Source of the DNA: Kiritimatiellia bacterium | GTDB lineage: Bacteria > Verrucomicrobiota > Kiritimatiellia > RFP12 > UBA1067 | Reading direction: 5' to 3' | NCBI GenBank assembly: GCA_041673345.1 | Contig: JBAYXX010000005.1 | Coordinates: forward strand, 5,929-69,928 | Length of the DNA: 64,000 nt | In this document: positions 175 to 63,193 of the stretch, one piece after another | Layout of the letters: each line of letters starts with the position of its first letter | Numbering within the stretch: position 1 is the first letter of the stretch | The notes under the pieces: model-generated | Databases searched by the model: none | What the model saw: only the letters and a program-made list of their open reading frames with translations | What the model was told of the DNA's origin: nothing | Position numbers and translations under genes: made by a program

Positions 175-285
175 TCTGTGAGCGACACAGAGGTTTAGTG
201 TAGTAGTCGCTCTGTGAGCGACACAGAGGTTTAGTGTAGTAGTCGCTCTGTGAGCGACACATGCCGCTCATAGAGCGGCTACTAC
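175..285. repeat. REP-A head-to-tail array (36-bp period, ~2.5 units) closed by an inverted REP-A copy
   Basis: GTAGTAGTCGCTCTGTGAGCGACACAGAGGTTTAGT is repeated, then CATGCCGCTCATAGAGCGGCTACTAC follows in the opposite orientation. Confidence 0.85.
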
Positions 286-718
286 ACCCGATGCTGGTTG
301 ACGATGCTGTGCGACCCGCCTTCCGGTCGTTCGGCGTGGCAAGCGATGTTGGTGAACGATTGGAATCATGCGGGAACTCGTCCACCAGCATCTTAGCCGC
401 TATCGTAAACCGAAGGCGCGGCTGACCAGCCTGCGTAACCTGATCATTCGCGTACCACCCACAGTCGCCCGCATAGCGAACGACTTCCTTGTCTCGAACC
501 TTGTCTCGAACCTCGTCTTTTCGCCTATCCCTGCCCACTGCGGATCTAGGAAAACAATGCAGCCTGAAGGCTGGACAACAAACTCCGTTTCCCAAAACGC
601 GCAGCGGTTGTTACTAAAGCAGCGGGCTCTTAATCATCCAACCTTCAATAAGGACGAATCGCTCTCGCAGATTGCACAAACTCAATTTGGCACTGAGGCT
701 AGTTGCTTTAGGATGGTG

Positions 719-1774
719 CTATTTCAGCCAACGGTCCAGGTTTTCCGCCACAAACGCGTCGTCGTTCAGGTCGGGGTAGGCCCGATAGACACGCTCGATC
801 TCCTTTTTCTGACCGGAAGACAGGATCTCGTTCGGGTTCAGCGTCCAGATCCCATCGAGCAACCCTTGGCGGCGAAGGACCTCGTGGATACCGGTGATGC
901 AGCCTGCGAAGTTGTTAGCAGCGTCAAAGAACGCCGCGTTGCAGTCGGTCACCTGCACGCCCAGCTCCAACAGGCGGGAGGCTTCGGTGTCGTCGGCCCC
1001 GTGTATCCGTTCCAGCAGGTCAACCGCCTTTCGCGTCCATACAGCCCAGTGTCCGAGCAGGCCGCCGACGATCCGCTTCGTGACTGGCTGCTGCCCATCC
1101 GACAGGGTGTAGCTGGTCAGCAGGTCGGCCACAATATTGTCGTCGTTGCCAGTGTAAAGAGCGATCTCCCCGGCCCGGCCAGCTTCGATCACGCCCCTTA
1201 CCACATCTAGGGTTTGATAGCGGTTGAACGGTGCCATTTTAATGGCCACCACGTTGTCGATGCGGGCAAAAACGCGCCAGAAGTCCACGTCCAGTTTGCG
1301 TCCACCCACAGCTGGCTGGAGATAGAAGCCGATCACCGGCAGGACGGATGCCACGGCCCGGCAATGTTCCAACATCCCACTGTTGGATGCCCCCTTCCAT
1401 GCGGCAAGGCTCAGCAAGACCGCATCGTAGCCTAAGTCTGCGGCCAGCTCTGCCTCCCGCACAGCCTGGGAGGTCGCGCCGATCACGCCCGCGATCATGA
1501 CAACTGGCCTGTTGGTCCGGGCGACGAAACTGACCTGTTCCTCTTTTGCCAGCTCCAGCACCGGTCGGAGCAATGCGACTTCAGGCAGACGGATTTCAAA
1601 CTGCGTTGTGTGTACGCCTACCGCAAGCCCGCCCGCGCCAGCCTCAAGATAATAGCGGATTAAGGCGCGTTCGCGCCGCTCGTCAAAGCTCCTGTTACGG
1701 GTCAAGGCCAGCGGTAGCGCAGGAATCACGCAGCCGCGGGAGAGAACGAGGTTTTTTTCATGTGTCAGTTGCAT
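719..1774 (-). CDS. DapA/NanA (dihydrodipicolinate synthase) family class-I aldolase-like protein, divergent
   Basis: ORF 719..1909 trimmed to the ATG at 1774, which has AAAGGA 6 nt upstream. Family-like segments are AGAGGLAVGVHTTQFE (position of the GTTGE motif) and NVVAIKMAP (Schiff-base Lys region). Last gene of a co-directional catabolic cluster. Substrate not assignable. Confidence 0.55.
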   Translation of the reverse strand: MQLTHEKNLVLSRGCVIPALPLALTRNRSFDERRERALIRYYLEAGAGGLAVGVHTTQFEIRLPEVALLRPVLELAKEEQVSFVARTNRPVVMIAGVIGATSQAVREAELAADLGYDAVLLSLAAWKGASNSGMLEHCRAVASVLPVIGFYLQPAVGGRKLDVDFWRVFARIDNVVAIKMAPFNRYQTLDVVRGVIEAGRAGEIALYTGNDDNIVADLLTSYTLSDGQQPVTKRIVGGLLGHWAVWTRKAVDLLERIHGADDTEASRLLELGVQVTDCNAAFFDAANNFAGCITGIHEVLRRQGLLDGIWTLNPNEILSSGQKKEIERVYRAYPDLNDDAFVAENLDRWLK

Positions 1775-1992
1775 GGGGTATCCTTTAATATTCATGTTGC
1801 CTATAACTTCGACCTCTGGTCGATAAAATGTCACTAGCCAAGTAGTCGCAATAGCCCACGTTGTTTGATTAGGATTATGCTTAAGATTGTGATACGGCTT
1901 GCAATTCACCTGCTAAGCAACTCGGTTGGCGCGCTCCTTACAGCTCCGGCTTGCTTATCACTCGGCTCCAATCCCGAGTTACAAGCAAGCAG

Positions 1993-3030
1993 TCAGTATT
2001 TTCCATCTCGAACTTCGAAATGAGTTTGCTTGTTCAGCAGCCGGTTCCCGTGGCTGATCCAGTTTGCGATCCATGGCATCATCCGTTCCGGGGTTACCCG
2101 CGGCTTTCCGAACAGGGCGAGCGCTTGCCCCGCATTACTGAGCAGGGCTGTCGGTGCCTCGCTTCCCTCAAAAACAGGCTCTTTTCCCATTAGTTGGCCA
2201 AACTCTAACGCCGCCTGCCTGATCGACAAGGTCTCGGGGCCAGTGAGGTTCAGGATCTTAGCCGGGCTGACGCAAAGCGGCAGCGACCGCAGCACCGCCG
2301 CATTCATGTCGCCCTGCCAGATCACGTTGAAAGAGCCCATTGACAGGTTGATCGGCTGCCCATCGCGCACCTTGCAGGCGATATCGACCAGGACACCGTA
2401 GCGCATCTCAACGGCATAGTTCAGGCGAATCAGCGCGACCGGCGTCCCGTGCTGGAGGCTGCCGTACTCGAACATCCGCTCGCGTCCCAGGCAGGACTGG
2501 GCATATTCACCGATAGCGACGGGTGGATCCTGTTCCGCCGAGCCGCCGGAAGTTGTGTTCACCAACGGGTAAACACAGCCAGTCGAGAATGCGACGATTC
2601 GGGATGCCTGGTAGTGCTCCGCCACCAGCGCTGGCACATAGGTGTTCATCGCCCAGGTCAGAGAGAGGTTCGCCTCGGCACCGAACTTCATCCCGGCTAG
2701 GAAGATTACATTGGGGATTTTGGGCAGGCTCCTGACAAACGTGGGCTCCAGCAGGTCGCCCCGCAGAGTCTCAATGCCATGTTTTTCCAAGCGCTCGCGT
2801 TCCTGCGGGTCGCTGAAGCGCGACACGCCGATTATTTTTTTGGGGACCCCTGCTGCCTCGCACGCCCGCCGGGCCATACGGGCTAGAGAAGGTCCGATCT
2901 TGCCAGCGATCCCCAGAAAAATGAGATCGCCCTCAAGGGCTTTGAACATGTCGATGACCTCGTCAGTCGGCCGCGACAGGAGTTCCTCCAATTGTGCTTC
3001 ATTCTCGATCAGGTCGGGATAGGTAGTCAT
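1993..3030 (-). CDS. NAD-dependent epimerase/dehydratase family protein
   Basis: 345 aa with an N-terminal Rossmann glycine motif (IFLGIAGKIGPSLA). Length and layout fit an extended SDR. Start overlaps the stop of the upstream M20 gene by 4 nt. Confidence 0.6.
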   Translation of the reverse strand: MTTYPDLIENEAQLEELLSRPTDEVIDMFKALEGDLIFLGIAGKIGPSLARMARRACEAAGVPKKIIGVSRFSDPQERERLEKHGIETLRGDLLEPTFVRSLPKIPNVIFLAGMKFGAEANLSLTWAMNTYVPALVAEHYQASRIVAFSTGCVYPLVNTTSGGSAEQDPPVAIGEYAQSCLGRERMFEYGSLQHGTPVALIRLNYAVEMRYGVLVDIACKVRDGQPINLSMGSFNVIWQGDMNAAVLRSLPLCVSPAKILNLTGPETLSIRQAALEFGQLMGKEPVFEGSEAPTALLSNAGQALALFGKPRVTPERMMPWIANWISHGNRLLNKQTHFEVRDGKY

Positions 3031-4163
3031 ATTTGCAGCTCTCCGTTTTTGAGGATGATTGTCTCGTAAAGGGTCACTGCTTCGCGGAGCTTGTCCGTCA
3101 GGCAGTATTCATTTGTCCGGTGGGCCTGCCCCGGCTCTCCGGGCCCAAGAATGATCGTTGGCGCGCCGTTGTACAGCCGTTGCAGGTGGCTGCCGTCCGT
3201 CACATAGGACAGCGATCGCGGGCGGTCGCAGCCACCTGCCGCGGGCACACCGCAGATGGCATCAACCATTCGCGCAAAGGGGTCGTCTGCCCGTGTGTTG
3301 ACCGGTGTCAGGTCCACAAGGGTCTCGACAACGACCTCGTCTCCCAGCTCACGGCACAACCGCTCACGGATCTCCGTATGGTTGACCATAGCGGTGGTGC
3401 GGATATCAACAGAGAACTCCGCATGGTCGGGGACGGAATTCATATTCTCGCCGCCGGACATGCGTCCCACATTGATGGTCGGCATGCCATGCAGTGCGTC
3501 GCGCTCCGCATCAAAACAAAAGCTAGCAATCCGGGTGATGGCCCTTGCCGCCTTATAGATGGCGTTATCCCCCAACTCGGGCATGGAGGAGTGCGCTGTC
3601 CTGCCGGATGCCGAAACCTTAAGGTACAACGCGCCCTTATGTCCCAGATACGGAACATTTGAAGTCGGCTCCCCGATGATGAGGGCGCGGGCCTGACCCA
3701 GGCGGTATTGCGTGTCGGCCAGGTGCTGGGCACCCAGACATCCAGGCTCCTCGGCTGCCGTGAAAATGAAACGGAGGCCGCCGCGCGGCACGGCCTTCGC
3801 GAACGCCCGCCGTGCGGCACACAACATGGCAGCGATACCGCCCTTCATGTCGCTGGCCCCCCGTCCGTACAGCCGGCCCTCTCGTATCCTGCCTGCAAAC
3901 GGCGGCTCTTTCCAAGGGCGAATACCCAACGGAACCGTATCCAGATGTCCGGAAAACACCAACGGGGGAGTGTCGTCCGCGAGGCCTTTCTCGGCGACCA
4001 GCGTCAGACGACCCGGTGCCAGTTGGTCGTACCGAACCGCGAAGCCGTCCGCAGAGAGCAGGCCGCCAAGGAACCACGCGGAAGCCTCCTCCCCGCCCTG
4101 CGGGCCGGAGGTGTCGAACGCGAGCAGCTCGCGTGTCAAAGCGATAACATCGTCATTTTGCAT
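3027..4163 (-). CDS. M20 family metallopeptidase / deacylase (ArgE/DapE/CPG2-like)
   Basis: 378 aa with M20 motifs GHLDTVP, GRGASDMKGG and the AAEEPG acidic pair. It also has the C-terminal GPGEPGQAHRTNEY segment typical of ArgE/DapE. Confidence 0.75.
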   Translation of the reverse strand: MQNDDVIALTRELLAFDTSGPQGGEEASAWFLGGLLSADGFAVRYDQLAPGRLTLVAEKGLADDTPPLVFSGHLDTVPLGIRPWKEPPFAGRIREGRLYGRGASDMKGGIAAMLCAARRAFAKAVPRGGLRFIFTAAEEPGCLGAQHLADTQYRLGQARALIIGEPTSNVPYLGHKGALYLKVSASGRTAHSSMPELGDNAIYKAARAITRIASFCFDAERDALHGMPTINVGRMSGGENMNSVPDHAEFSVDIRTTAMVNHTEIRERLCRELGDEVVVETLVDLTPVNTRADDPFARMVDAICGVPAAGGCDRPRSLSYVTDGSHLQRLYNGAPTIILGPGEPGQAHRTNEYCLTDKLREAVTLYETIILKNGELQI

Positions 4164-4177
4164 GGTTTTGTGACTCC

Positions 4178-5443
4178 TTATTGCTCCTTTACCGGAGTAT
4201 TCGGCAGGAAAGACACGATAACCGCGCCCGCGAGGGCCACGAACATCAGCACGCTAAACCCTAGGGCATAGCTTTTTGTCGTCTCATTATACAGGGCACC
4301 CACCAGCATGGGAAAGGCGGACTCCGCCACGCCATCCGCAACCAGAATGATGCCCATGGTACGTCCCAGCGCACGGACTCCGAAGAGGTCGCCGGCCATC
4401 AGAGGGATGATCATATAGTCGCCGCCCAAACCGATCCCGAAAATTGCCGCGAAGAGATAGATGCGCCCTGGGAATGCGGGCAGCAGCAGGAGAGGAATCG
4501 CGCCCGCGACACACAGACAGATCACGATCATCACGTGCTTGCGATTAAAGCTGTCGGCCAGCCAACCCATCAGCACGCGCCCCACAAGGCTCGAAAGCAG
4601 CACTAGCGACATGATATTCGCGGCACCTGACTGAGAGAAATCCAAGTCACGCAGGTAAAGTTTCAGGTGCTGCCCGATTCCGCCCACCGCTCCAATGGAA
4701 CACAGGCTGCCGACAGCCAACAGATAGAAAGCGGGATTCTTCAAGATGTCCCGTACCGGCACCATCGGCTGAGGCGCTTGTTGGTTGTCCGCAGCCCGCC
4801 GTCGCTCTTTGAGCAACAGGGGCAGCGGAACTGCGATAAGGATGATCAGAACCCCCAGCGTGCACAGCGCGCGGTGCCAGCCGAACCCCTGTTCCAACCG
4901 GGCCGCAATCAGTGGCGCCAGCGCGCCGCCGGCACCGATGCCCAGATAGGCGATTCCCATGGCCTTGCCCCGGTTCCGCTCGAAACGCTTCGAAATCAAC
5001 ACTTGGCAGGGAAGCGGACCGCCGCAGACATAACCGAGGGCGTTGAAGAGATAAAAGAGATAGAAGAGGCCCAGCGAATTGGCGAAGCTCAAACCGATCA
5101 ACGCCACGCCCATCATCAGCGCCCCGGAAGCCATCAGCCGTCGCGGGCCGTAACGGTCGATCATCCACCCGGCAATAAAGCCGAACGCGGGGCCGACCAG
5201 CAATTTGCCCAACGCGTTTCCGGAGGTGACGATTGTGCGCGACCAGCCGTATTCTCCGGTCATAAAATCATAGAAAAATGGCAGGCCATAATACGCGAAC
5301 CCGACGATCCCGAAAAGAGAAAAAAATGCCGCCGCCACAACAAGTGCCGAAGCCCCCCTCCAGCCGGAAGAGTTCTCCATTGCTGGATCCTCATCACTGG
5401 CCTTAACTTCTAACAGCTTTTTATAACTAACTCGGATTGTCAT
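4178..5443 (-). CDS. MFS transporter
   Basis: 421 aa and highly hydrophobic, with about 12 TM segments. MFS motif-A-like loop GWMIDRYGPRRLM. An alternative start at Met22 (5380) is preceded by GAGGA. Confidence 0.75.
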   Translation of the reverse strand: MTIRVSYKKLLEVKASDEDPAMENSSGWRGASALVVAAAFFSLFGIVGFAYYGLPFFYDFMTGEYGWSRTIVTSGNALGKLLVGPAFGFIAGWMIDRYGPRRLMASGALMMGVALIGLSFANSLGLFYLFYLFNALGYVCGGPLPCQVLISKRFERNRGKAMGIAYLGIGAGGALAPLIAARLEQGFGWHRALCTLGVLIILIAVPLPLLLKERRRAADNQQAPQPMVPVRDILKNPAFYLLAVGSLCSIGAVGGIGQHLKLYLRDLDFSQSGAANIMSLVLLSSLVGRVLMGWLADSFNRKHVMIVICLCVAGAIPLLLLPAFPGRIYLFAAIFGIGLGGDYMIIPLMAGDLFGVRALGRTMGIILVADGVAESAFPMLVGALYNETTKSYALGFSVLMFVALAGAVIVSFLPNTPVKEQ

Positions 5444-5547
5444 AGCGAACTTTCGTTTATTCCATGCATTAAATGCGAATACTCTGCAGCCAAATAGACT
5501 TCATGCAGTATGAAACTCCATAGCAAGCAGGATGCTTGATCTGCGTT

Positions 5548-7506
5548 CTACAACTCGCGAAGCGGTGCTTCCGCCCCTGGAACGCCTGCCTTCAGCAGAA
5601 CCTTAAATTCATCCAGATGCTTTTGATAAACATCGCGCGGATCACAGTTATGTTTCACGCATAACCCGGCGGCCATACCTAAAACCTCCCCTATCATACC
5701 CGTTGTACGCATTACACGCACAGTTCCAAGAGCTACATGCGTGACGCTGATATTGCGCCCCGCCATCATCAGGTTATCAACGTTGCGTGAGTACATGCAA
5801 CGATATGGGATAGGATAGGGATTTATTTTATGGGATTTTGCTACAGAACGAAATGGTTCACAACCGCTGGCTGACGGTAGCGGATAATGCAAATCAACAG
5901 GCCAGGTGGCCGTGACACACGCATCTGGATATATCACCGGCTCATCCAGATCCTGTTGCTTCAGAATAATGTCGCCCAGCAACCGGCGCGACTCGCGTTT
6001 GCCTCCAATGCAGGCCACCCATTCAAGTCTGCTCTTGGCAAACTTATCTTTAAACTTTGGATGATTCTTGAGCACACTCCAGTTACCGAATGTAACGCGC
6101 AGGGCATAGTCTCTGATTTGCTCGATATCTGCAACCTGATCCAGATAGGCCCCGGTCTCCCAGTTCCAGTCACCACGCATGGCAGCGATGCAGTTAGTTT
6201 CATTAAACGACACAGCCCACGGACACCCAGGAAAGGCAGAAGCTCCTGTATCTGCAACAGCGTACCACTGCACTGATGTGCCCATCACAAGCTGGTCAGA
6301 GTCCTCAGGGGCAAGCTTCTCACCTGTGGTACTCTTTGCCTCACGCCCCACACGAAAATCCGCTTTGGCAAGCGCGCCCAGATTGCCGTCGCCTGTGCAG
6401 TCCGCAAAAAGCCGACCTTTAAACAGCTGCCTTTCACCGCTCCTGATGTTCTGTCCAACAACCGCAACGATGCGCGCGCCATCCATCTCAACCCCATTGA
6501 CGTGGGTATTGAGAAATAACGAAATATTCTTTTCAGCCAGAACAACGTCAACCTTCCTTTGATCCTCGTAGTTGGTTAAGGGTCCGGCATTGTGCTGTTC
6601 TTTCTCAGGATGATCTTTAATCACCTGCATTATTTTTTTGCTACGCTCAGAGGCAGGGTCACGCTTGGCCTCCCAGAGGTTCCAATGGCCAATAGGGCCA
6701 ATCTCATCCAAAAGCTTGCCCAACGCTGGATATGGTTCCTGGAAGATCAACCCCGACAAACCAACCCGCACTTCGGAGCTGTTGTTGCCGCCCAACACTG
6801 GACGATTCTGAATCAGCGCAACACGGCATCCCTGGCGCGCGGCGCTGATCGCCAGACAGCAACCTGCCACGCCACCACCGACAACCACCAGATCATACTC
6901 TCCGGCCAACTGTGGCAACTCTGAAATTCCCTGCATCTTAATCCGAAAAGCGCGCAGTGCCTCACCGCTATTGGGTGGTGGTGTAGTCAAATCCGAACTG
7001 AAAAACACCGCATCGCAGCGTCCGTCAAAACCGGCCAGGTCATGCAGGGACAGAGAGCAATCGCCCGCCTTGATTGTAATGACTCCGCCGTCATGCCAAT
7101 GCCACTCCGCCCTCTCTGTTCCAAAGATTGTCTCCAGAGCGCCTCCATTAATCAGGAGCTGGAAACGTCCGGGGCATCCTTGGGCCTTCATTGCCGGCCG
7201 AGTATCGTCACTCTTCCATGGAGCAACCCAGTCGCGGGTACGCACCCACACCCGATAATCCCCACCTTTTGCGAACCGCACTATGGTTGTAGCATCCTTT
7301 ACAGGGTGGCCCAACCCATGAGCCAGCATGTAAGGCGAGCCCATCTGATCCATCGACTGCTGATCAACCAGCCATCCCCCTGATTCTCTGAAGCTCTCGG
7401 CCTCTACAAGCACAGCGGCGGCATTGGTATAAAGGCCTGCGAGCAATGCCAATGAACATAATAAAAGGTTCTGCTTATTCATCATTCTCCATTTCGTGGT
7501 CTTCAT
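5548..7506 (-). CDS. secreted FAD-dependent oxidoreductase with an N-terminal beta-sandwich (carbohydrate-binding-like) module
   Basis: 652 aa with a signal peptide (LLLCSLALLAGLYTNAAA). A module of about 190 aa precedes the dinucleotide fold DLVVVGGGVAGCCLAISAARQG. This architecture is common in polysaccharide-degrading PVC and Bacteroidota. Confidence 0.65.
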   Translation of the reverse strand: MKTTKWRMMNKQNLLLCSLALLAGLYTNAAAVLVEAESFRESGGWLVDQQSMDQMGSPYMLAHGLGHPVKDATTIVRFAKGGDYRVWVRTRDWVAPWKSDDTRPAMKAQGCPGRFQLLINGGALETIFGTERAEWHWHDGGVITIKAGDCSLSLHDLAGFDGRCDAVFFSSDLTTPPPNSGEALRAFRIKMQGISELPQLAGEYDLVVVGGGVAGCCLAISAARQGCRVALIQNRPVLGGNNSSEVRVGLSGLIFQEPYPALGKLLDEIGPIGHWNLWEAKRDPASERSKKIMQVIKDHPEKEQHNAGPLTNYEDQRKVDVVLAEKNISLFLNTHVNGVEMDGARIVAVVGQNIRSGERQLFKGRLFADCTGDGNLGALAKADFRVGREAKSTTGEKLAPEDSDQLVMGTSVQWYAVADTGASAFPGCPWAVSFNETNCIAAMRGDWNWETGAYLDQVADIEQIRDYALRVTFGNWSVLKNHPKFKDKFAKSRLEWVACIGGKRESRRLLGDIILKQQDLDEPVIYPDACVTATWPVDLHYPLPSASGCEPFRSVAKSHKINPYPIPYRCMYSRNVDNLMMAGRNISVTHVALGTVRVMRTTGMIGEVLGMAAGLCVKHNCDPRDVYQKHLDEFKVLLKAGVPGAEAPLREL

Positions 7507-7617
7507 TCCGTTGTCGTCTTTCGAAGGGATCGAAATAATCGAGAGCTTCGATTTCGTCGATTCCCTCGAGTCGCCCGACTCTTGCGATTTACCTTTATAA
7601 CTTCCGCACTTCTCTCT

Positions 7618-8067
7618 TCATTTCAGTAGCGACATCACGATTTGATTGACCAGCTTGCCGTCTGCCAGGCCTTTGACTTTAGGCATCAGCAGCTTCATGA
7701 CCTTGCCCAAATCCGCTTTGCTCACAGCTCCGCTCTCTGCAATACACGCTTTGACAACCGTTTCAATCGCAGCCTGATCCATCTGCGCTGGCTGATAGGC
7801 GCTGAGCCACACCAGTTCAGCCTGCTCCTTGGCAACCAGATCATCGCGTCCGGCGGCCTTGAACTGCTCAATTGAGTCAGCCCGCTGTTTGATGGCCTTC
7901 GCAACCACCGCGATAACGATCTCCTCGGTGATCTCTTTGCCTGCGTTGACGGTTTGATCCTTGACAGACGCGTGCAGCATGCGCAGCACAGTCAGTTTGT
8001 CGCGTTCGCCGGCTCTCATTGCGGTTTTGATGTCAGCCATTATCTGGTCAATTAACTCTGTTTTCAT
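7618..8067 (-). CDS. yqeY: GatB/YqeY domain-containing protein
   Basis: 149 aa. The N-terminus MKTELIDQIMADIKTAMRAGERDKLTVLRML and the overall length match the YqeY family. Confidence 0.8.
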   Translation of the reverse strand: MKTELIDQIMADIKTAMRAGERDKLTVLRMLHASVKDQTVNAGKEITEEIVIAVVAKAIKQRADSIEQFKAAGRDDLVAKEQAELVWLSAYQPAQMDQAAIETVVKACIAESGAVSKADLGKVMKLLMPKVKGLADGKLVNQIVMSLLK

Positions 8068-8124
8068 AATGCGCCTTTTGTTCTTTTCAAAAAGTTTTCT
8101 ATTGAATGTTTATCGGAGTTTAAT

Positions 8125-8174
8125 GTAGTAGTCGCTCTGTGAGCGACATATGCCGCTCACAGAGCGGCTACTAC
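8125..8174. repeat. REP-A inverted doublet (REPIN-like)
   Basis: GTAGTAGTCGCTCTGTGAGCGACA-TA-TGCCGCTCACAGAGCGGCTACTAC. Each arm keeps its own 7-bp stem, T..A in one arm and C..G in the other. Confidence 0.85.
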
Positions 8175-8262
8175 AGCTGACGCGCCAACGGTGTCGCGCA
8201 CACACTGCACAAACTCATTTGGTTGCGGCGACTAGCTGCTTTAGAACTAACTGCCGTCCCCT

Positions 8263-8994
8263 TCATGGTTCCCAGCGATACTCCTGCTGCGGTTTCCATT
8301 TAGGGCGGTCACCGAAAAGCACACTTCCGAGACGCACCCAGGTGGCACCCTCTTCAACGGCGATGCGGTAGTCATTGCTCATGCCCATGGAAAGGCGGGG
8401 CAATCCGATTGAAAATTTCTCTTCAAGGCGGTCGCGCAGCTCGCGCAACTCGGCAAAGACCGGTCGGGTCTCCTCGACCTCAGGGGTGTAGGGTGCCATG
8501 GTCATCAAACCTGTCAGTGTGAGCGAGCGCATCTCCAGCGCCCGCTCAATCACGCTATCCAGGGCATCTGGCTTGAAACCAAATTTAGAAGCCTCACCGG
8601 AGATATTCACCTCCAGCAGCACCTCGGGGCGCTGTCCATCCTCAGCGGCAATCCGCTCGACTCCCTCCAGCAGTTTAAGTGTGTCGATGGCATGAAAGAC
8701 GGGAAAGAGAGCGAGCGCGGCTCTGATCTTATTGCTCTGCAGGTGGCCAATCAGGTGAAAGTCCACACCGCCGCCACACTCCTGAATCTTCCAGGCAGCT
8801 TCCTGCACGCGGTTTTCACCGAAAATATTGATCCCCGCATCCAAAGCCTCTCGCACCAGCTCTGGGCCGTGAGTTTTAGTAACCCCGATAATCTCGACTG
8901 CATCCAGTGAACGTCTGGAAACGCGCGAGGCCTCTGCAATAGCGGCATTGACCTCGTCGAGAATATCTTTTAGATCGCGTTGCTTCTCGCTCAT
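8263..8994 (-). CDS. yggS: YggS family pyridoxal-phosphate homeostasis protein
   Basis: 243 aa with an alanine-racemase-N-like fold. Motifs GVTKTHG (PLP Lys), HLIGHLQSNK, SMGMSNDY and ATWVRLGSVLFG. Confidence 0.85.
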   Translation of the reverse strand: MSEKQRDLKDILDEVNAAIAEASRVSRRSLDAVEIIGVTKTHGPELVREALDAGINIFGENRVQEAAWKIQECGGGVDFHLIGHLQSNKIRAALALFPVFHAIDTLKLLEGVERIAAEDGQRPEVLLEVNISGEASKFGFKPDALDSVIERALEMRSLTLTGLMTMAPYTPEVEETRPVFAELRELRDRLEEKFSIGLPRLSMGMSNDYRIAVEEGATWVRLGSVLFGDRPKWKPQQEYRWEP

Positions 8995-9006
8995 AAAAAT
9001 TTTCTC

Positions 9007-9603
9007 CTAAAAATCAGTTCTGCCATTGATCGCGCGTTTCAATGTGATTGGATCGGAGTAGGCCACCCCGCTGTCAGCGGGCAATCCAAAGGCCAGCCGA
9101 GTCACCCGCACCCCTAGAGGTTTAAGCATCTCGTCGATATAGGCGGCGGTGGCTTCGCCCTCCATATCAGTGCTGAGCGCCAGAATGACCTCTTGCACCC
9201 TCCCGCCTGCCACCCGCGCGGAAAGCTCTTTAAGCCGGAGAGTGGCTGGAGCAGTTTGACGTGCTGGCGACAGCTTTCCAAGCAGCGCATGATACTTGCC
9301 ACGGAATACACCCGCACGCTCAATTGCCACTATGTCGGAGGGCTCTTCCACCACGCAGATCAGATCATCCCGCCGGGTTTCATCGCCACAGAGCTGACAG
9401 GGCTGAGCCCCGACCAGTGTCAGACCGCCGCAGGTTGAGCAGCACTCAATCGAATCTTTGACCTCCTGCAGCGCCTGTATCAAAGGGAGAGCGAGCTGCT
9501 CCGGCTTTCTCACCAGCGCGAGCGCGGCACGCTCAGCCGAACGCCGCCCCAGTCCGGGGAGTTTGGAAAGTGCGCGGATCAAATTATTGACTGGCTCGAC
9601 CAT
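9007..9603 (-). CDS. recR: recombination protein RecR
   Basis: 198 aa with an HhH N-terminus (LSKLPGLGRRSAERAAL) and a C4 zinc finger (CSTCGGL...CQLC). The Toprim segment is VVEEPSDIVAIE. Sits downstream of ybaB as in the conserved ybaB-recR pair. Confidence 0.9.
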   Translation of the reverse strand: MVEPVNNLIRALSKLPGLGRRSAERAALALVRKPEQLALPLIQALQEVKDSIECCSTCGGLTLVGAQPCQLCGDETRRDDLICVVEEPSDIVAIERAGVFRGKYHALLGKLSPARQTAPATLRLKELSARVAGGRVQEVILALSTDMEGEATAAYIDEMLKPLGVRVTRLAFGLPADSGVAYSDPITLKRAINGRTDF

Positions 9604-9610
9604 CAGGCAA

Positions 9611-9928
9611 TCACCCTCCCAATAAGCCTTCCATGCCAGAGCCCTGCATCAACTTAGCCATCGCGTCCTGCGTCTGTTTCTTAACCGCCTTGAGAGCGCC
9701 GTTGACCACATTGGTCAGCATGATCTCATAACGTTGCGGTTTTCCGGACAAAACATCGCGCATAGACTCTTCGCTCACTTTAATTGAAACAATCGTGAAA
9801 TCACCGCGGGCGACACACGTAATTCCGCCATTGCTGTACTCGCAGGTAATCTTCTCAATCTCGGATTGAATTCGCTTGGCCTCTTTACGCATCTGCATGG
9901 CCTGTTTCATTTGATCCATCATTCCCAT
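9611..9928 (-). CDS. ybaB: YbaB/EbfC family nucleoid-associated protein
   Basis: 105 aa with the typical N-terminal MMDQMKQAMQMRKEAKRIQSEIEK helix. Conserved pairing with recR. Confidence 0.85.
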   Translation of the reverse strand: MGMMDQMKQAMQMRKEAKRIQSEIEKITCEYSNGGITCVARGDFTIVSIKVSEESMRDVLSGKPQRYEIMLTNVVNGALKAVKKQTQDAMAKLMQGSGMEGLLGG

Positions 9929-9988
9929 AAAATTATCTCCTCAGAAATTAAACTTCCGCATCACGCGGAATTCTGGTTACAAAAAAAT

Positions 9989-10017
9989 TAAACAACATTA
10001 TTATATGAAATTCACTT
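9989..10017 (-). promoter_or_regulatory. candidate sigma70-type promoter of ybaB-recR
   Basis: On the minus strand, TTGAGA (10017-10012) is followed by a 17-nt spacer and TATAAT (9994-9989). This lies about 60 nt upstream of the ybaB ATG and downstream of a strong terminator. Confidence 0.35.
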
Positions 10018-10346
10018 TGTTTTCTCAAGCACAAACGCGTCATGAATCTTGCAAGCCATAACTAGCCTGCTCGCAGATGAAATTTTATCGGTATTGGAGT
10101 GAAGAAGTTCTAAAGTTCGAAAGTTCTAAAGCAGCTATCCGCCGCAACCAAATGAGTTTGTGTGATTTGTGAAAGGTCTTCGCTCTCATTGAGAAGTTTG
10201 TGATTAAGAGCCCGCTGCTTTAGTAACAAACACCGCGCGTTTGGGAAAACGAAGTTTGTAGTACAGGCTTTCTGTGTCCGGCGTAGCTGCGAAGCGCGAA
10301 GACGGAAGCCCGCTTAAAAGCGGTTTATTGAGAAGTTGCAATAAAG

Positions 10347-10382
10347 GTTATAAAAAAGTAACACAGGCGTCTCGCCTGTGTT
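10347..10382 (-). terminator. rho-independent terminator (minus strand)
   Basis: The minus strand reads AACACAGGCG-AGA-CGCCTGTGTT, a 10-bp GC-rich stem, followed by ACTTTTTTA. It lies about 600 nt downstream of the lysA stop. Confidence 0.55.
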
Positions 10383-10750
10383 TGGCACGTAATTCACAGC
10401 CGAGACAGCTGTGCTACTTTCTCGCCCTTCAAAAAAACTAGCTCCTGATTAGTGCCGCATTCTTGCACATTGACCCCTGAAAACAGTGAGTTGTCTAAAA
10501 ACCGTGAGTTGGTGGTTGTTCCAGACACCACCTTAAGTGCTTCCACTCAAGAACTTATGAAGATGGTTGTCTGAACCTCCTGTTTTTTGCGACAGGAGTT
10601 GAAAGAATAGCAACTAGGTCCGCGCGCTGGGCGCAGAGTGGAGAAGGGCATGAGTGCGTGAGTGCGGAATTTTTAATCGTAATCCGCTATCGCATGCCGC
10701 GCCGAACGACTGGAAGGCGGGTCGCACATCATCGTCGGCCAGCATCGAAT

Positions 10751-10870
10751 GTAGTAGCCGCTCTATGAGCGGCATGTGTCGCTCATAGAGCGACTACTAC
10801 ACCAACCTCTGTGTCGCTCATAGAGCGACTACTACACCAACCTCTGTGTCGCTCATAGAGCGACTACTAC
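10751..10870. repeat. REP-A array: one inverted copy plus three head-to-tail units (35-bp period)
   Basis: GTAGTAGCCGCTCTATGAGCGGCAT is followed by (GTGTCGCTCATAGAGCGACTACTACACCAACCTCT) x3. This is the reverse complement of the array at 39181-39407. Confidence 0.9.
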
Positions 10871-10982
10871 ACTAAACCCCGATAAACATTCGATAAACAA
10901 CTTTTTAGAAAGAACAATTAATTGTTTTTTCTAGTCGCCTAAGCGACTAAAGTTAAAAGCTAGCGCCAGCGGTGCTACCCCC

Positions 10983-16074: not shown

Positions 16075-16201
16075 GCGGCATGTGTCGCTCATAGAGCGAC
16101 TACTACAGATGCGCGGCACGGCGGAATGCAAGAGTTGTCGCTCGGTGTAGTAGCCGCTCTATGAGCGGCATTGCATGTTTTGTGACGCTCGTTGAGCGGC
16201 A
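16075..16201. repeat. cluster of three REP-A copies (one degenerate) overlapping the mgtC 3' end
   Basis: GCGGCATGTGTCGCTCATAGAGCGACTACTAC lies at 16075-16106 and GTAGTAGCCGCTCTATGAGCGGCA at 16147-16170. A degenerate TGTGACGCTCGTTGAGCGGCA lies at 16181-16201. Confidence 0.8.
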
Positions 16202-16936: not shown

Positions 16937-16959
16937 AAACCGCACCAACGGTGCGGTTT
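16937..16959 (-). terminator. weak hairpin overlapping the stop codon of the GspK-like gene
   Basis: The minus strand reads TAAACCGCACC-GTTG-GGTGCGGTTT. The stem is 10 bp but only three T follow it. Confidence 0.25.
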
Positions 16960-22197: not shown

Positions 22198-22217
22198 TTT
22201 AGGATCTCGGTTTTTTG

Positions 22218-25028: not shown

Positions 25029-25030
25029 TT

Positions 25031-44228: not shown

Positions 44229-44252
44229 GTAGTAGCCGCTCTATGAGCGGCA
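44229..44252. repeat. solitary REP-A copy
   Basis: GTAGTAGCCGCTCTATGAGCGGCA, downstream of the S1 gene. Confidence 0.8.
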
Positions 44253-52334: not shown

Positions 52335-52338
52335 AAAA

Positions 52339-53424
52339 TTACCCTCGTTGCTGCAACTCTTGTTTAAGCTTTTGAACAACTGTTTCAGGATCTTTTGCTT
52401 TCGTGATCAAGTCATCATATGAAATCATCCCAGCTAGATAGAGTTTCATCAAATGCGAGTCAAGCGTCACCATGCCGAACTTGTGACCTGTCTGAATATC
52501 CGAATCAATCTGGAAGGTCTTATTGTCGCGGATACGGGAGCGTATCGCCGGCGTGGAGATCATGATTTCAAACGAAGCCACCCGCCCTGGTTTATCAACC
52601 CGCTTGAGCAGGAGCTGTGAGATCACAGCGACCAGGCCAACAGAGAGCTGGGTTCTAACCTGCTCCTGCTGATCCATTGGAAACGCGTCCACAACACGGT
52701 CAACCGTGGCCGTGGCGCCGGTGGTGTGCAGCGTGGCGAAAACCAGATGGCCGGTTTCAGCGGCGGTGATTGCGGCCTGCATGGTTTCCAGATCGCGCAT
52801 TTCACCCACCAGAATTACATCCGGGTCCTGGCGCAGAGCACGCCGGATAGCCTCAGCGAAACTCGGAACGTCATGGCCAACCTCACGTTGGGTGACAATA
52901 CAATTTTTATGCGGGTGGTAGTATTCAATTGGGTCTTCAACCGTGATGATATGCAGAGCGCGCTGCTGGTTGATGACATCAAGCATACTGGCCAAGGTGG
53001 TGGATTTGCCGCAACCAGTCGGCCCGGTCACAAGAATCAATCCCCGAGGTTTAAAGAGCAACTCTTTCACCTGCTCGGGCAGGCCGATTTGTTTCAGCGT
53101 CAAAAGGTCACTGGGAATCAAACGCAACACAATGCCGAAACGTGAACGTTCCTTGAATACCGAAACACGAAAACGGGCGGCATCACCGAAAGGCAGTGCG
53201 AAATCGGTGCCGCCGCTCTGTTCGACCTCCAGCCGACCATCCTCTTTGAGGATCGAAAGTGCCAGGCGTTCGGTATCTTCCGCGGTTAACACCGGAATAT
53301 CCAAAGGTGTTAAAGCGCCGTGAATACGCAGCATTGGCGCCACGCCAACTCTGATATGCAAATCGGACGAACCTTCGTCAACCGTTGCCTGCAGCAACTC
53401 ATTCATAGTAAGTTCGTTATTCAT
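52339..53424 (-). CDS. pilT: type IV pilus twitching-motility (retraction) ATPase PilT
   Basis: 361 aa with no N-terminal T2SSE_N domain. Has Walker [31 protein letters not shown] and [10 protein letters not shown]. Length is typical of PilT. Confidence 0.85.
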
Positions 53425-55118
53425 TATTCAGCATCTCCCATTGTTGCTCTCAAAACTTCCTGGAGCGATGTCATGCCTGAAGCAACCTTCAACATGCCAT
53501 CCTCTCGCAAGGTTCTCATGCCCATCTCCCGGGCCCGCGCGCGCAAAACTGAGGCTGGCGCCTGATCAAAAATCAATCTCTGGATCGTGTCGTCCATCAA
53601 AAAAATCTCAAAAATACCTTTTCGCCCTTTATAACCGGATTGGCTGCAAGCGGAGCAGCCTTTGCCTTTAAACACCTTCCCTGTTGTTATGCGTTGTCCC
53701 ATGGCACCCAGCATTTTTATCTCACGCTCGGTGGGGGTGTAATCCGCGCGGCATTTATCGCAGATGGCGCGCACCAGCCGCTGCGCCATGGCCGCCCGTA
53801 TGGCGGATGCCACGAGGAAAGGCTTAACGCCGATATCCAGCAGACGGGTAACCGCACTGGGTGCGTCATTTGTATGCAGCGTGCTGAAAACTAAGTGACC
53901 GGTCAAGGCGGCCTCCATCGCGATATCGGCTGTCTCCGCATCACGAATTTCTCCGATCATAACAATATTAGGAGCTTGTCGCAGAATAGACCGCAGCGCA
54001 GCGGAGAAGTCCAGCCCCACATCCCGATTTACCTGTACCTGATTGATGCCTTCCATCTGATATTCAACAGGGTCTTCAACCGTGATGATCTTACGGTCTG
54101 GCAGGTTGATCTGCCCCAGACAGGCGTAGAGCGTGGTCGTCTTGCCGGAACCGGTCGGCCCTGTCACCAGCAGTACGCCATCGGGCAAGTTGATCAGGCG
54201 CTCAAATTTATTCTGGTCATCAGAGAGAAATCCCAACTGCGGCAGTCCCAAACTCAGATTTTCCTTGTCCAAAATACGCATCACAATACTCTCGCCATGG
54301 TTGGTCGGAACTGCGGAGACACGCAAATCCAGCTCACGTCCCTGCACCTTGACTTGAATACGCCCATCCTGAGGAACGCGTTTTTCAGAGATTTTCATAT
54401 TGGACATGATCTTGACCCGGCTCAGAATGGCGGCCTGCAGCCGTTTGGGCGGTGTATCCATTTCGCGCAGCACACCGTCAATCCGATAACGCACGCGGAA
54501 GGTGCGTTCGAGCGGCTCCAAATGAATATCAGAGGCCCGCATTTTACAGGCCTCCATGATGATTAAACTCACCAGACGGATCACCGGGGCGTCCGAGTCG
54601 CCCGCGTCCGGATCAGTTTCATCGAGCGCAAGCTTTTGCTCAATGTCTAAATCCTCACCTCCGAAGCCAAACTTGCTCTCAAAATCTTCTGGGTATAATT
54701 TTTCAAGTGCGCTCTTCACCTCACTGGCGGGAGCTATAACAGCCTCAATGTTCTTATTCAGCACATAGCGGAGGCTGTCAACCGTGTCGTAGCCCATCGG
54801 GTCGCCCAGCGCGACAGTGATTGTGTCTTCAGTGCAATACACCGGCACCACCCCGTACTTGCGGGCGACATCTCCGGGGATCGTATCCTTGACAGCGATA
54901 TCGATCGAATCCACATCCACATGAACATACTCCAAACCAAACTGATACGCGATCAGAGAGAGAACATCATCCTCATCCACAACCCCGCTTTGCATCAGAA
55001 TATCGAGTGTGGTTTCCCCTTCTTCCTTGAGAGAGCCTTTGACAGCATCGACCTGCTCAGACGTCACATACCCCTGTTCCAGCAATAAATCTAAGACATA
55101 GTCATCATTTGAAGTCAC
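53424..55118 (-). CDS. PilB/GspE-family assembly ATPase (first copy of the triplet)
   Basis: ORF 53424..55133 begins with TTG. The more likely start is the GTG at 55118, 7 nt after GAGGAG. Has a T2SSE_N domain, [19 protein letters not shown] and FSTLHTND. The tetracysteine motif is CDKC...CSAC. Its stop overlaps the pilT ATG by 1 nt. Confidence 0.85.
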
Positions 55119-55153
55119 AAATTCTCTCCTCAATCAAAAGTGCGTAAAATCGC

Positions 55154-58690: not shown

Positions 58691-58713
58691 GTCCGATTAA
58701 AAATCGGACCTAA
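58691..58713. repeat. solitary, slightly degenerate REP-D copy (inverted)
   Basis: GTCCGATTAAAAATCGGACCTAA. Confidence 0.65.
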
Positions 58714-62100: not shown

Positions 62101-63013
62101 CCAGAGCCTCCACCTTGGAGCACTTGAGCTGACGACCGGTATCAGTTGCCGCACTCACCAAAGCGGTGGGATGAGATAACAAAGCACGGTTGGTTTGCTT
62201 TGATTGCATCTGCGACAGCCATCCTCGCTGGTTGACAGAAAACGAGATATAACGGTTCTCAAAATCAGCCACCACCGGCAACGGCTTGGAGTCATGTACA
62301 GTATAGACAGCGGAGGCGCGCTTCATATCAGTGGCAAGGCTTTGAACCTCCTGCTGGGAGAGTGCCCGATTGTAGATACGCAAGTCATCCATCAGCCCGT
62401 TATGGCAGGCCGGCGGGTACCAGCCACCCAGGCGCAAACCATCGCATTGAATAGGAAAATCCCATTTCCCATCAGCCACCTTTTTGCCATCCACATATGT
62501 CGAAATATGCGGGCGTTCAAAAGTCACACACAGATGTGTCCACTTGTTTGTCGGCAATTGATTCAGCAAAGACACACCCACCTCCCGCCATCCATCACCC
62601 TTTGTATCCGGCTTGCCAAAACGAACACTGCATGTGTTCTGATTGACAAACAACATCATTCCACCTGGAGACCATGTGCGGCTGGTGAGAATATTCGGGT
62701 AGCTACGCATGGCATCCCCCTGCCACATGACCCAAATCGACAGTGAAAGAGCATTAGCGTTGCGCATGGCCGGGATCGCTTCAATTTCGACAAACGCGTT
62801 GGCGCCTCCAAAGCTAAGGGCTGTTCCAAATTCGCCCTTGGCCCATTGAACATTTTTGAGTTCCGCCTGAACACCCCCTTTCGAACCACGGTCGCTGACT
62901 ACCTCGTGCTGCTCATCAAATGGCAGCCAAAGTAATTCAGGGACATCGCCGCAGGCCCGCCCGACAATCAACAAACAAATGACACTGGCAAAAAACCGAT
63001 ATTTCTTCTTCAT
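59159..63013 (-). CDS. secreted 1284-aa protein with an N-terminal LamG (concanavalin-A-like lectin) domain and a large uncharacterised body
   Basis: Signal peptide FFASVICLLIVGRACG. LamG hallmarks are ALSFGGANAFVEI...LSLSIWVMW...WTHLCVTFE...YVDGKKV...LMDDLRIYNRALSQQEVQSL. The remainder has no motif I can name. Confidence 0.6.
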   Translation of the reverse strand: MKKKYRFFASVICLLIVGRACGDVPELLWLPFDEQHEVVSDRGSKGGVQAELKNVQWAKGEFGTALSFGGANAFVEIEAIPAMRNANALSLSIWVMWQGDAMRSYPNILTSRTWSPGGMMLFVNQNTCSVRFGKPDTKGDGWREVGVSLLNQLPTNKWTHLCVTFERPHISTYVDGKKVADGKWDFPIQCDGLRLGGWYPPACHNGLMDDLRIYNRALSQQEVQSLATDMKRASAVYTVHDSKPLPVVADFENRYISFSVNQRGWLSQMQSKQTNRALLSHPTALVSAATDTGRQLKCSKVEALDHNRLRFFFRGDPGWVDLKISDQGDFFDIDLLECTLKNVERLTFFEVASALKNYYGGMANMLSDEEEGICLRGYDLPVEMSLFANNLRLQTTRELGLVGWRGGLAVGPRAELPSILRKMTQHAGVPYSTNGGAWSLDSRANKGSYLFADLSLASVDEWIELARRCGHEVIHLHGWWQGLGQYPINRTLFPEGEADLKRAVQRIHAAGLKAGMHTLTACINPRDPWVTPVPHPDLLAANVYTLSKDLPADTTSVYVDEIPVAGHDVVFTYSGNGNALRIGDEIIQYTRISRTKPYGFFDCKRGAFGTTAAAYKGGDSIDYLQQRYYAFYPKPDSALAEALARRLAHIFNSCEIDNFYFDGSEGMRSRYGIDFMRHSIMKKMRNDAVIEASCHGAHNWWFHSRLGAWDHPMWGMKEFHDLHVSSAKTYRKTDLLAPQLGWWAPRQVNANVRGHFQDEMEYFACKNMALESASSIQGVNVSHQPLSYAIEKQLTILGWYEKLRLAEYFDRPTLDQIAVPGQEFELRQNPSGLWRFTPVAYDYHRVSAAEGSVWESVNSFGEQPATLRMEALQRALPYNDPAAILLVGGTACTNLQIKTAPSVKLAVSSTAEERFAGSFKLEAKNQGEAAYGAWSSASVSFAPDYLDISPCGAVGLWVKGDGSGALLNVQLATPREHLGGLSEHYVTLNFEGWRYCEFHLRERDTRLHQLYRWPYNNIHALYRNPLNRKYLSAVNIYLNNIPAGGGTAVVLSPVVALPAKDCKIVNPEIQVNAESLIIPFTLNSGDFAEVDADGRCTHFNPSGDPLASVSLSKQPLYKKGVNRLTLMPVSKGEGVPRAELSLISRGEAFGSMQPESAIGWKYLQRAFALPRIIQHGGSQESRWIEPMSAGQKAKVEIELYGPVVNPTLTINNHVAKFDITLKLGERVRCRDQQNWQIIDSSRKILSQGRLEKELPLLQGGPNQVSFSSEGACDARLNLVKVIAP

Positions 63014-63165
63014 GTGGTCTCCCTTGAACGTTAATTTTATTTTCTCAAAACAATTCTCTCAGATCCTGTCGCGAAAAACAAGAAGTTCGGCAAGCGTTTT
63101 CATAAGTAATTGAGTACAAGCACTTAAAGTGGTATTTCAAACAGTTCCAACTTCACTAAAAACTT

Positions 63166-63193
63166 CATCTGCAAGCAAGGATGCTTGCACTAC
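63166..63193. repeat. REP-C copy overlapping the tsaE stop codon
   Basis: CATCTGCAAGCAAGGATGCTTGCACTAC. On the minus strand the GTAG head (63193-63190) contains the tsaE TAG stop. Confidence 0.8.

Follow-up and report, generated by a model that had tools for sequence, protein, structure and literature searches.

Di Nocera et al. 2013 (PMC3733652) described REPs that carry a GTAG tag on a stem-loop and form doublets, sub-types and clusters, with multiple families per genome, including in the verrucomicrobium Opitutus terrae; genomes with several GTAG families carry repeat-specific RAYT loci (PMC3733652). The repeats analysed here, from a 64-kb stretch of a Kiritimatiellia bacterium (the window), resemble the O. 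terrae families GTAG-17 to GTAG-20 (PMC3733652): in both, an unpaired GTAG stands at one end of a 6-9 bp stem with a very short loop, several families share one genome, sub-families carry alternative complementary stem residues, doublets lie 1-2 bp apart with their GTAG tags outside, tandem clusters form, some units sit at or inside ORF ends, and the host belongs to the PVC group. The stem sequences appear to differ, however, and O. terrae itself is GC-rich. Unlike the O. terrae repeats, family A of the window has a doubled head, an extra GTA preceding its GTAG (GTAGTAG), and the window arrays multiply one arm head to tail with a single inverted partner as a cap. The GTAT of family B departs from GTAG at the fourth position, and PMC3733652 does not list this change.

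The REPs and BIMEs of E. coli, served by TnpA-REP (PDB 4ER8; Ton-Hoang 2012, Messing 2012), likewise set two REP types in inverted orientation (Y/Z there, A1/A2 here), combine with other conserved spacer motifs into mosaics and amplify in tandem. E. coli REPs are nevertheless longer, imperfect palindromes with a bulge, whereas the window stems are perfect over 6-8 bp; BIME-2 arrays repeat the whole Y-Z pair, whereas the window arrays repeat one arm only; and the two sets share no sequence similarity. The REPINs of Pseudomonas fluorescens (Bertels and Rainey 2011, PMC3116915) are also inverted REP doublets that form one long hairpin, and here as in P. fluorescens the pair may be what a RAYT, present in one copy and inherited vertically, mobilises. 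Their arms lie tens of nt apart, however, compared with 1-2 nt in the window, and the window doublets are hetero-doublets, joining arms of fixed, different sub-types. The subterminal hairpins of IS200/IS605 elements and their TnpA (ISDra2, PDB 2XM3) offer a further parallel in that an HUH/Y1 enzyme reads, or in the window would read, a single-stranded hairpin, but no transposase gene lies between the window hairpins, and the units, at 24-28 nt, are not IS ends.

The window repeats are probably REPs of the GTAG-tagged super-family (GTAG in families A, C and D, GTAT in family B), residing in a Kiritimatiellia chromosome and spread by a RAYT whose gene lies in another part of the genome. Single copies, inverted hetero-doublets (REPIN-like) and head-to-tail arrays are all present, within mosaics of repeated spacer modules. 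No new principle is involved: these are new REP families of the known GTAG-tagged type. Multiple GTAG families, hetero-doublets and compensatory sub-types were all known from earlier work on GTAG REPs (PMC3733652), which makes the repeats less of a novelty than the original prediction implied.

Repeat families and their layout

The window holds 34 hairpin repeat copies (19 of family A, 6 of D, 3 of C and 6 of B) spread over 11 intergenic sites, where chance would supply none. All but one (33/34) lie outside coding sequence, although intergenic DNA makes up 12.4% of the window. The GTAG tag stands on 25 of the 59 perfect hairpins with a stem of at least 7 bp, against a chance expectation, by our own estimate, of about 2. 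Wherever the structural features of a REP could be tested, all were found: a tag, a short stem-loop with perfect pairing, a place outside genes, doublets, and sub-types separated by complementary changes; as to dispersal, the copies are scattered over 11 sites in the 64 kb.

The prediction of GTAG-headed REP families with doublets was borne out, and family A lies at the loci proposed for it. Its pattern, GTAGTAGYCGCTCNNNGAGCGRCA, was hit 20 times when up to 2 mismatches were allowed, with 19 exact hits and an expectation of 0.00. Each unit forms a 6-7 bp stem with a 3-nt loop, and the copies fall into four clear doublet-containing clusters, a loose pair (16083-16204), a lone copy and a decayed one:

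175-285, both strands: cluster between convergent genes; truncated unit 175-199, A1 at 200-223 (+) and 236-259 (+), A2 at 262-285 (-); 36-nt unit period
8125-8174, both strands: doublet with GTAG tags outside; A1 (T..A stem) 8125-8148 (+) and A2 (C..G stem) 8151-8174 (-), 2 nt apart
10751-10870, both strands: cluster in reverse orientation; A2 10751-10774 (+), A1 at 10777-10800, 10812-10835 and 10847-10870 (-); 35-nt period
16083-16204, both strands: copies at the 3' end of an mgtC-like ORF; A1 16083-16106 (-), whose GTAG head furnishes the TAG stop codon of that ORF; A2 16147-16170 (+), within the tail of the ORF; headless A2-like hairpin 16186-16204
34316-34339, + strand: decayed A2, head GTCGAAG, stem intact
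39183-39407, both strands: largest array; six A1 head to tail (+), 35-nt period, with an inverted A2 cap at 39384-39407 (-)
44229-44252, + strand: single A2 copy

In families C and D the stem spans 8 bp and the loop 3-4 nt. The pattern of family D matched six times (0.01 expected), as predicted, but two of these copies, 39566-39588 and 58691-58713, are decayed. All three predicted copies of family C were recovered, the one at 39757-39783 with two substitutions; the last copy escaped a fixed-length pattern because its loop is 4 nt long, and the further trace proposed near 5519-5545 amounts to a weak remnant. Their positions are:

24443-24489, both strands: D doublet with GTAG tags outside; GTAG GTCCGGTT tcc AACCGGAC (+) and GTAG GTCCGATT tcc AATCGGAC (-), 1 nt apart
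34179-34201, + strand: single D copy with a TCT loop
39541-39588, both strands: D doublet whose second arm (39566-39588) is headed by GCAG
58691-58713, - strand: D copy with a TTAG head and TTT loop, in a module 79% identical to 39526-39611
25031-25057, - strand: single C copy, GTAG TGCAAGCA tcc TGCTTGCA GATG
39757-39783, + strand: C copy in which one of the two substitutions breaks a stem pair
63166-63193, - strand: C copy with a 4-nt loop, whose GTAG head furnishes the TAG stop codon of tsaE

Family B had been said to lack the GTAG head. It indeed has no GTAG, but it is not headless: GTAT is conserved in 33/36 copies from the window and its relatives. Because it carries GTAT, it matches the GTAG-tagged type only in part. 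Its stem spans 8-9 bp including one G.T pair, and its sub-types, GTATA...T and GTATG...C, differ in a compensatory outer pair. The six window copies are:

33970-34104, both strands: B cluster with heads pointing inwards and a conserved G.T pair in the stem; inverted GTATG-head sub-type 33970-33993 (-), GTATA-head units 34007-34030, 34044-34067 and 34081-34104 (+); 37-nt period
25100-25123 and 25157-25180, + strand: two B variants with stem TCCTCCGC

Hairpin constraint, doublets and flanking modules

Covariation keeps the hairpin of each arm intact. The predicted compensatory pattern persists when many copies are pooled, with T..A or C..G in 96/98 copies found by a relaxed pattern. Sites of the form GTAGTAG+6+3+6+CA are perfect palindromes in 109 of 129 cases, with five stem types. 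In the pooled copies 91.5% of cells pair, compared with 80.4% in shuffles; double changes occur in 5/7 stem pairs, and the observed score was reached by 0/500 shuffles. The two arms of a doublet had been predicted to differ at exactly two positions, which holds for 8125/8151, 10751/10777 and 24443/24467, whereas the arms of other doublets differ also in loop or head.

The doublets of families A, D and B each fold, like a REPIN, from an inverted REP pair into one long hairpin, with z-scores of -7 to -10. As single-stranded DNA the A doublet at 8125-8174 forms a single 22-bp hairpin (-25.4 kcal/mol), the D doublet at 24443-24489 folds at -21.2 kcal/mol, and the minimum-free-energy fold of the B doublet reaches -32 kcal/mol. 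Units are repeated at periods of 35-37 nt in tandem arrays at 175-261, 10775-10872, 39181-39383 and 33999-34117.

The REPs are joined by conserved non-REP modules, with which they make up a BIME-like mosaic. The hairpin at 39103-39121, first taken for a variant of family A, proved to be the end hairpin of one such larger module:

39104-39180, + strand: conserved non-REP module flanking A arrays, with hairpin TAGTCGCTTAAGCGACTA, 12-bp palindrome ACAATTAATTGT and a leader of ~45 nt
10875-10949 and 34134-34167: inverted copies of this module
8078-8124: partial copy of this module

Proposed RAYT association, turnover and competing explanations

In the process that we envisage, a unit in single-stranded form would fold into a short stem-loop, leaving the tag unpaired at the 5' side of its base. 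A RAYT (a TnpA-REP-type HUH/Y1 nuclease, presumably encoded elsewhere in the genome) would read tag and hairpin, cut, and rejoin the DNA, and units or doublets would thereby spread to intergenic sites, where arrays may grow or shrink locally via slippage or recombination.

The 64-kb window encodes no RAYT, as originally predicted, nor any other transposase, and neither was found within 4.4 kb past its left end. Among 0.45 Mb of REP-bearing loci from relatives, the only RAYT was that of L044, whose protein matches NF047646 (E 1.6e-19). We collected 328 RAYT homologues, some of them named RayT by JGI. H71, H73 and Y124 are invariant, and the PVC RAYT profile matched TnpA-REP (PDB 4ER8) at E 6.9e-17 and PDB 2XM3 weakly (E 1e-3). 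GTAG hairpins with 6-9 bp stems flank 63/80 metagenomic RAYT loci, and all six loci examined singly (L044, L141, L144, L150, L151 and L154) are flanked in this way; L044 and L141 are labelled Kiritimatiellia. The flanking hairpins usually comprise two stem types paired as inverted doublets, with 36-nt arrays in some cases, and the pairing of RAYT with GTAG hairpins holds broadly in Kiritimatiellia's part of the PVC group. Families A-D themselves occur at 0 of the 86 RAYT loci examined. By comparison with these loci, the link of families A-D to RAYT appears well supported, and we infer that a RAYT of the source genome probably acts on them.

The repeats are dispersed in relatives. All four families are present in loci of the related MAG JAQUCE01, where family A lies on more than 30 contigs, a lower bound among the matches listed, and at least 13 species-level PVC genomes contain family A. 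Identity in the flanking modules is 80-95%. At orthologous spacers of relatives these REPs are missing or present in other numbers, and the repeats therefore turn over: the decarboxylase-ybaB spacer measures 1054 bp in the window, where it contains the A cluster at 10751-10870, but 353 bp with other REPs and 136 bp without REPs in two relatives; the yggS-yqeY spacer measures 195 bp with the doublet at 8125-8174 but 48 and 116 bp in relatives, where that doublet is absent; and L029 and L046 carry, at the same sites, 3 versus 5 and 1 versus 4 REP units. Deletion or recombination could also have produced these presence/absence and copy-number polymorphisms.

The variation in array length, which slippage can explain, would also suit orphan REPs, that is, repeats whose RAYT was once present but is now lost, so that decay, slippage and recombination of old copies produce the whole pattern. 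Many E. coli strains have lost their RAYT. REPtrons can likewise be lost according to PMC3733652, decayed heads (GCAG, TTAG and GTCGAAG) occur, and no RAYT was seen in the lineage's sequences examined (the window, the 4.4-kb flank and the relatives' REP loci other than L044). This absence is weak evidence, however, because the sampled share of any related genome is at most ~7%, and many copies are letter-perfect, with array units 98-100% identical. We therefore consider loss of the RAYT improbable, if the most serious competitor to continued spread by a RAYT encoded elsewhere.

Immobile elements with a host function only, such as mRNA 3'-end stabilisers, insulators, or nucleoid-protein or gyrase sites (as in BIMEs), are less probable still. 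Most copies do lie directly 3' of genes and two furnish the stop codon of the upstream gene, copies are embedded in conserved mosaics that include the 12-bp palindrome, and the G.T pair retained by family B implies a strand-specific hairpin. Orientation relative to transcription is mixed, however, one cluster lies between divergent promoters, and presence or absence varies at orthologous sites of close relatives. An intrinsic terminator role was rejected, as no copy has a T-run or T-rich tail and none was scored in a terminator scan. A host function would in any case be compatible with RAYT mobility, to which it would merely add a possible secondary role. One true terminator-like hairpin, distinct from the repeats, is found at 10360-10382.

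That the repeats are DNA-uptake sequences for the type IV pilus/competence machinery of the same window is very improbable: pilins, a secretin, PilM and four T2SSE ATPases are indeed encoded there, and inverted pairs are frequent among the uptake sequences of Neisseria, but uptake sequences are common inside genes, whereas these copies are almost all intergenic and comprise four unrelated sequence families with tandem arrays, in a repeat grammar that matches RAYT-flanking repeats. CRISPR-like or structured non-coding RNA arrays, which the regular 35-37 nt periodicity and palindromic repeats might recall, have a negligible chance of being correct, and a CRISPR array was rejected on its anatomy, since the 'spacers' are constant, identical linkers of 11-13 nt rather than unique sequences; the window is devoid of cas genes, and the repeats had no match in Rfam.

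Conservation of the family A arms and implications

The C..G arm of family A, GTAGTAG CCGCTC nnn GAGCGG CA, is near letter-perfect across Kiritimatiellia lineages whose orthologous proteins are ~59-67% identical, and it may also occur in other Verrucomicrobiota. Its partner arm is TCGCTC, TCGCTT or CGCCTC, depending on the lineage. Should this pattern reflect vertical descent, family A might represent an unusually old REPIN-RAYT partnership in which one arm is fixed by the enzyme while the other drifts, and the (A1)n-A2 arrays might represent a distinct mode of one-armed REP amplification; we offer this reading tentatively, and rate it as possible rather than probable. Hetero-doublets with one conserved and one variable arm provide a clean natural data set on RAYT recognition.

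These repeats add to the catalogue four well-defined REP families from Kiritimatiellia, a class for which our literature search found none described. They also fragment metagenomic assemblies (L142 and L143 are contigs that stop or switch within REPs) and inflate ORF calls, as the mgtC tail and several spurious ORFs span arrays; knowledge of the motifs is therefore useful to MAG annotators.

Hairpin repeat families of the window

Pattern counts far over chance confirm the hairpin repeat families of the original prediction. The family A pattern GTAGTAGYCGCTCNNNGAGCGRCA has 20 matches in the window at ≤2 mismatches, 19 of them exact, compared with 0.00 in dinucleotide shuffles, and family D has 6 matches versus 0.01 expected. 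Family C is found at 25031-25057 and 39757-39783, with a third copy carrying a 4-nt loop at 63166-63193, while family B contributes six copies. In a neutrally compiled catalogue of all perfect hairpins of the window (stem ≥7 bp, loop 3-7 nt), 25 of 59 have, on one strand, a GTAG no more than a few bases from the 5' foot, where the chance figure, an estimate, is about two. Although only 12.4% of the window is intergenic (gene limits backed by Pfam and by the annotation of a same-strain contig), 33 of the 34 REP copies lie outside coding sequence. An Rfam scan of the window returned no match. Within a pilin-like gene, at 23519-23541, a hairpin with a perfect stem of 10 bp and a tcc loop (GTAAAGCCGT tcc ACGGCTTTAC) is REP-like in form but lacks the GTAG tag and occurs once in the window.

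Family A units have the layout GTA-GTAG-(Y CGCTC)-nnn-(GAGCG R)-CA, in which the canonical GTAG is immediately followed by a 6-bp stem, to which its final G can add a seventh pair. The two sub-types are A1 (T..A) and A2 (C..G), and all clear doublets join A1 and A2 on opposite strands, with 2 nt between them and the GTAG tags on the outer sides. In arrays only A1, with a linker of 11-12 nt, is repeated, and one inverted A2 forms the end. Tandem Repeats Finder reported arrays with a 35-37 nt period at 175-261, 10775-10872, 33999-34117 and 39181-39383, the last with 5.8 units that are 98% identical.

Family A doublets and arrays in the window
200-285: (A1)2-A2
8125-8174: A1-A2
10751-10870: (A1)3-A2, inverted
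39183-39407: (A1)6-A2

Family D (GTAG GTCCGRTT tcc AAYCGGAC) forms hetero-doublets like those of family A, with arms 1-2 nt apart, and family C (GTAG TGCAAGCA tcc(t) TGCTTGCA GATG) occurs as single copies only. Family B had been described as headless, which does not hold: a GTAT head is conserved in 33 of 36 copies from the window and its relatives. Its two sub-types, GTAT-A-TCCGCCGC..GCGGTGGA-T and GTAT-G-..-C, differ by a compensatory outer pair, a G.T pair is conserved in the stem, and the doublets, which place their heads inside, are followed by arrays with a 29-39 nt period. In single-stranded form, doublets of families A, D and B each fold into one long hairpin (-25.4, -21.2 and -32 kcal/mol, respectively) that no shuffle equals.

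The identification of these repeats as REPs and REPIN-like doublets is supported by the match of their grammar with the GTAG super-family defined by Di Nocera et al. 2013 (PMC3733652), which is present in the PVC group and highly enriched in Opitutus terrae. That study describes coexisting families per genome, sub-families whose stems carry alternative complementary residues, doublets whose GTAG tags lie outside (in O. terrae with arms only 1-2 bp apart), tandem clusters, REPs at ORF ends and, in genomes with several families, repeat-specific RAYT loci. The window shares multiple families, complementary sub-types, tight doublets and clusters with the super-family, O. terrae included, and every feature flagged in the original prediction had therefore already been described. 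What the window adds is its host class and its specific sequences, a head doubled to GTAGTAG, a family tagged with GTAT, and arrays of a one-armed form. As a step within the REP interpretation, we infer that the repeats would be mobilised by a RAYT, a TnpA-REP-type HUH/Y1 transposase.

Other identities fit the repeats less well. A role as DNA-uptake sequences is unlikely, since the families are four, unrelated and strictly intergenic. Intrinsic terminators were rejected, as no hairpin has a T-run and a terminator scan found none; the REPs point either way with respect to transcription, and one cluster separates two divergent genes. The arrays are not CRISPRs because their linkers are constant.

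Stem covariation and turnover

The predicted compensatory stem changes persist when many copies are pooled: with both variable positions left unconstrained, all 19 copies of the window and 77 of the 79 from relatives have T..A or C..G. Among 129 sites that fit GTAGTAG+6+3+6+CA, 109 are perfect palindromes, and these comprise five different stems. Among 40 distinct sequences, 91.5% of pairing cells were paired versus 80.4% in shuffles, changes fell on both sides in 5 of 7 stem pairs, and sliding the partner by 1-3 columns reduced pairing to 25-50%. Much of this pairing signal is that of a few amplified master types, not of many independent events. Even so, the multiple stem types across genomes are all self-complementary, which supports a constraint acting on the hairpin of each individual arm.

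Orthologous spacers differ in REP content. The gene order decarboxylase-ybaB-recR-yggS-yqeY is kept in four related contigs (L146-L149), with RecR 83-86% identical.

REP content of two orthologous spacers
Decarboxylase-ybaB: window, 1054 bp with an (A1)3-A2 array; L146 and L147, 353 bp with B-like and C-like REPs; L148 and L149, 136 bp with no REP
yggS-yqeY: window, 195 bp with an A doublet; L146 and L147, 48 bp with no REP; L148 and L149, 116 bp with no REP

REP unit numbers at the same sites also differ between two loci with 90-95% protein identity, L029 (MAG CAYOQJ01) and L046 (MAG JAGYOL01), at 3 versus 5 and 1 versus 4. Inversion of the segment bounded by the inverted mosaic copies (10.9 and 39.1 kb) was ruled out because this gene order is unchanged in relatives.

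Distribution in relatives and the search for a RAYT

The homologues of the window's RecR at ≤83% identity are labelled Kiritimatiellae or Kiritimatiellia, and an identical YqeY protein occurs in JGI sample 3300014206. In species-representative genomes, the family A pattern was found at no fewer than 60 loci, and all matches listed come from PVC MAGs; among these, approximately 39 loci lie on over 30 contigs of the Kiritimatiellae MAG JAQUCE01 and the rest in at least 12 other species-level genomes. The REP-bearing loci examined in JAQUCE01 also hold 30 copies of B, 13 of C and 5 of D, and the window's flanking modules recur there at 80-95% identity. Since JAQUCE01 has all four families as well as these modules, the repeats are dispersed and common to a clade. 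Orthologues of the genomes sharing family A are divergent down to 59-67%, no synteny was found between the window and the 60 REP-bearing loci of relatives (L001-L060), and 2.9 million viral contigs gave zero matches to the family A pattern.

Cross-class spread of family A, suggested by titles naming Lentisphaeraceae and Victivallales/Lentisphaeria, was not accepted, as the labels are unreliable: MAG CAYOQJ01, labelled Lentisphaeraceae, shares synteny and 90-95% amino-acid identity with MAG JAGYOL01, labelled Kiritimatiellae, so at least one public taxonomic label is wrong. A 28.5-kb ENA contig of the same strain (L143) matches window 1-10906 at 99.9% identity, then diverges at a point exactly within the REP mosaic (window 10906, L143 2124) and continues with different genes; the cause is either a chimeric assembly at the repeat or a genuine rearrangement.

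The window was correctly predicted to lack a RAYT: no ORF of ≥80 aa matches an HMM of 34 PVC RAYTs, Pfam found no transposase among 44 plausible genes and four overlapping ORFs (only housekeeping, pilus and secretion genes), and the 4.4 kb beyond the window's left side contain no RAYT. When ORFs of ≥80 aa from the window and L001-L060 were searched by regex, phmmer and this HMM, the sole match was at L044, in Kiritimatiellae MAG JADHWI01. The 151-aa protein matches NCBIfam REP_Tyr_transpos (E 1.6e-19; 70 bits, under the curated cut-off of 80) and has 328 homologues, several of them named RayT by JGI. The HUH-motif histidines and the tyrosine are invariant in this family, whose profile matches E. 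coli TnpA-REP (PDB 4ER8) with E 6.9e-17. No REP-encoded peptides were found in 120 RAYT proteins.

Perfect GTAG hairpins lie within 350 bp of the RAYT gene in 63 of 80 metagenomic loci of this family. They are typically GTAG + 8-9 bp with a tcc, gcc or gct loop, and two stem types form inverted doublets, sometimes with 36-nt or 85-nt arrays. GTAG hairpins flank the RAYT in the same pattern at L044 and five further loci (L141, L144, L150, L151 and L154), and the RAYTs P0036, P0053, P0006, P0009 and P0049 are all flanked by GTAG REPs other than A-D. Families C and D share this grammar, as does family A except for its doubled head. Families A-D were absent from the 80 metagenomic loci and from these six loci, so no cognate RAYT is assigned to them. 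That A-D are orphan REPs whose RAYT has been lost from the lineage appears improbable.

Neighbouring modules and genes

The REPs are embedded in mosaics of other repeated spacer modules, similar overall to E. coli BIMEs. One module flanking REP arrays (39104-39180), a possible protein-binding site, consists of a hairpin, TAGTCGCTTAAGCGACTA, then a perfect palindrome of 12 bp, ACAATTAATTGT, and a leader of 45 nt; it has inverted copies at 10875-10949 and 34134-34167 and is found too in JAQUCE01 loci L006, L019 and L058. A second module, in which GACGAT motifs recur every 12-13 nt (34225-34266), has copies at 34214-34280 and 34335-34401 and related copies near 290-400, 10660-10745 and 39410-39520, and adjoins the A2 side of arrays. 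IHF binds BIMEs in E. coli. The window encodes a 311-aa protein (36771-37706, minus strand) that has an HU/IHF-type DNA-binding domain at its N-terminus and a weak match to RNHCP and is unusually long for its family.

Two genes end within REPs. An mgtC-like ORF (16103-16852, minus strand) runs through an A2 unit (16147-16170) and stops at the TAG within the GTAG head of an A1; its last ~50 residues are therefore REP-cluster-encoded. Likewise, tsaE (63190-63654, minus strand) takes its stop codon from the GTAG head of a family C copy.

Genes for pilin-like proteins, PilM and a secretin lie in a large cluster at 16958-33739, and the window has four T2SSE/PilB-type ATPase paralogues (25321-27132, 50616-52379, 52339-53424 and 53424-55133). 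Heptamer tandem repeats at gene junctions of the pilus/secretion operon, namely TTAGGGG x6.4 (27990-28034), TCAGGAG x6.4 (30557-30601) and ATTTTTG x4.9 (24275-24308), may be slipped-strand (phase-variation) sites.
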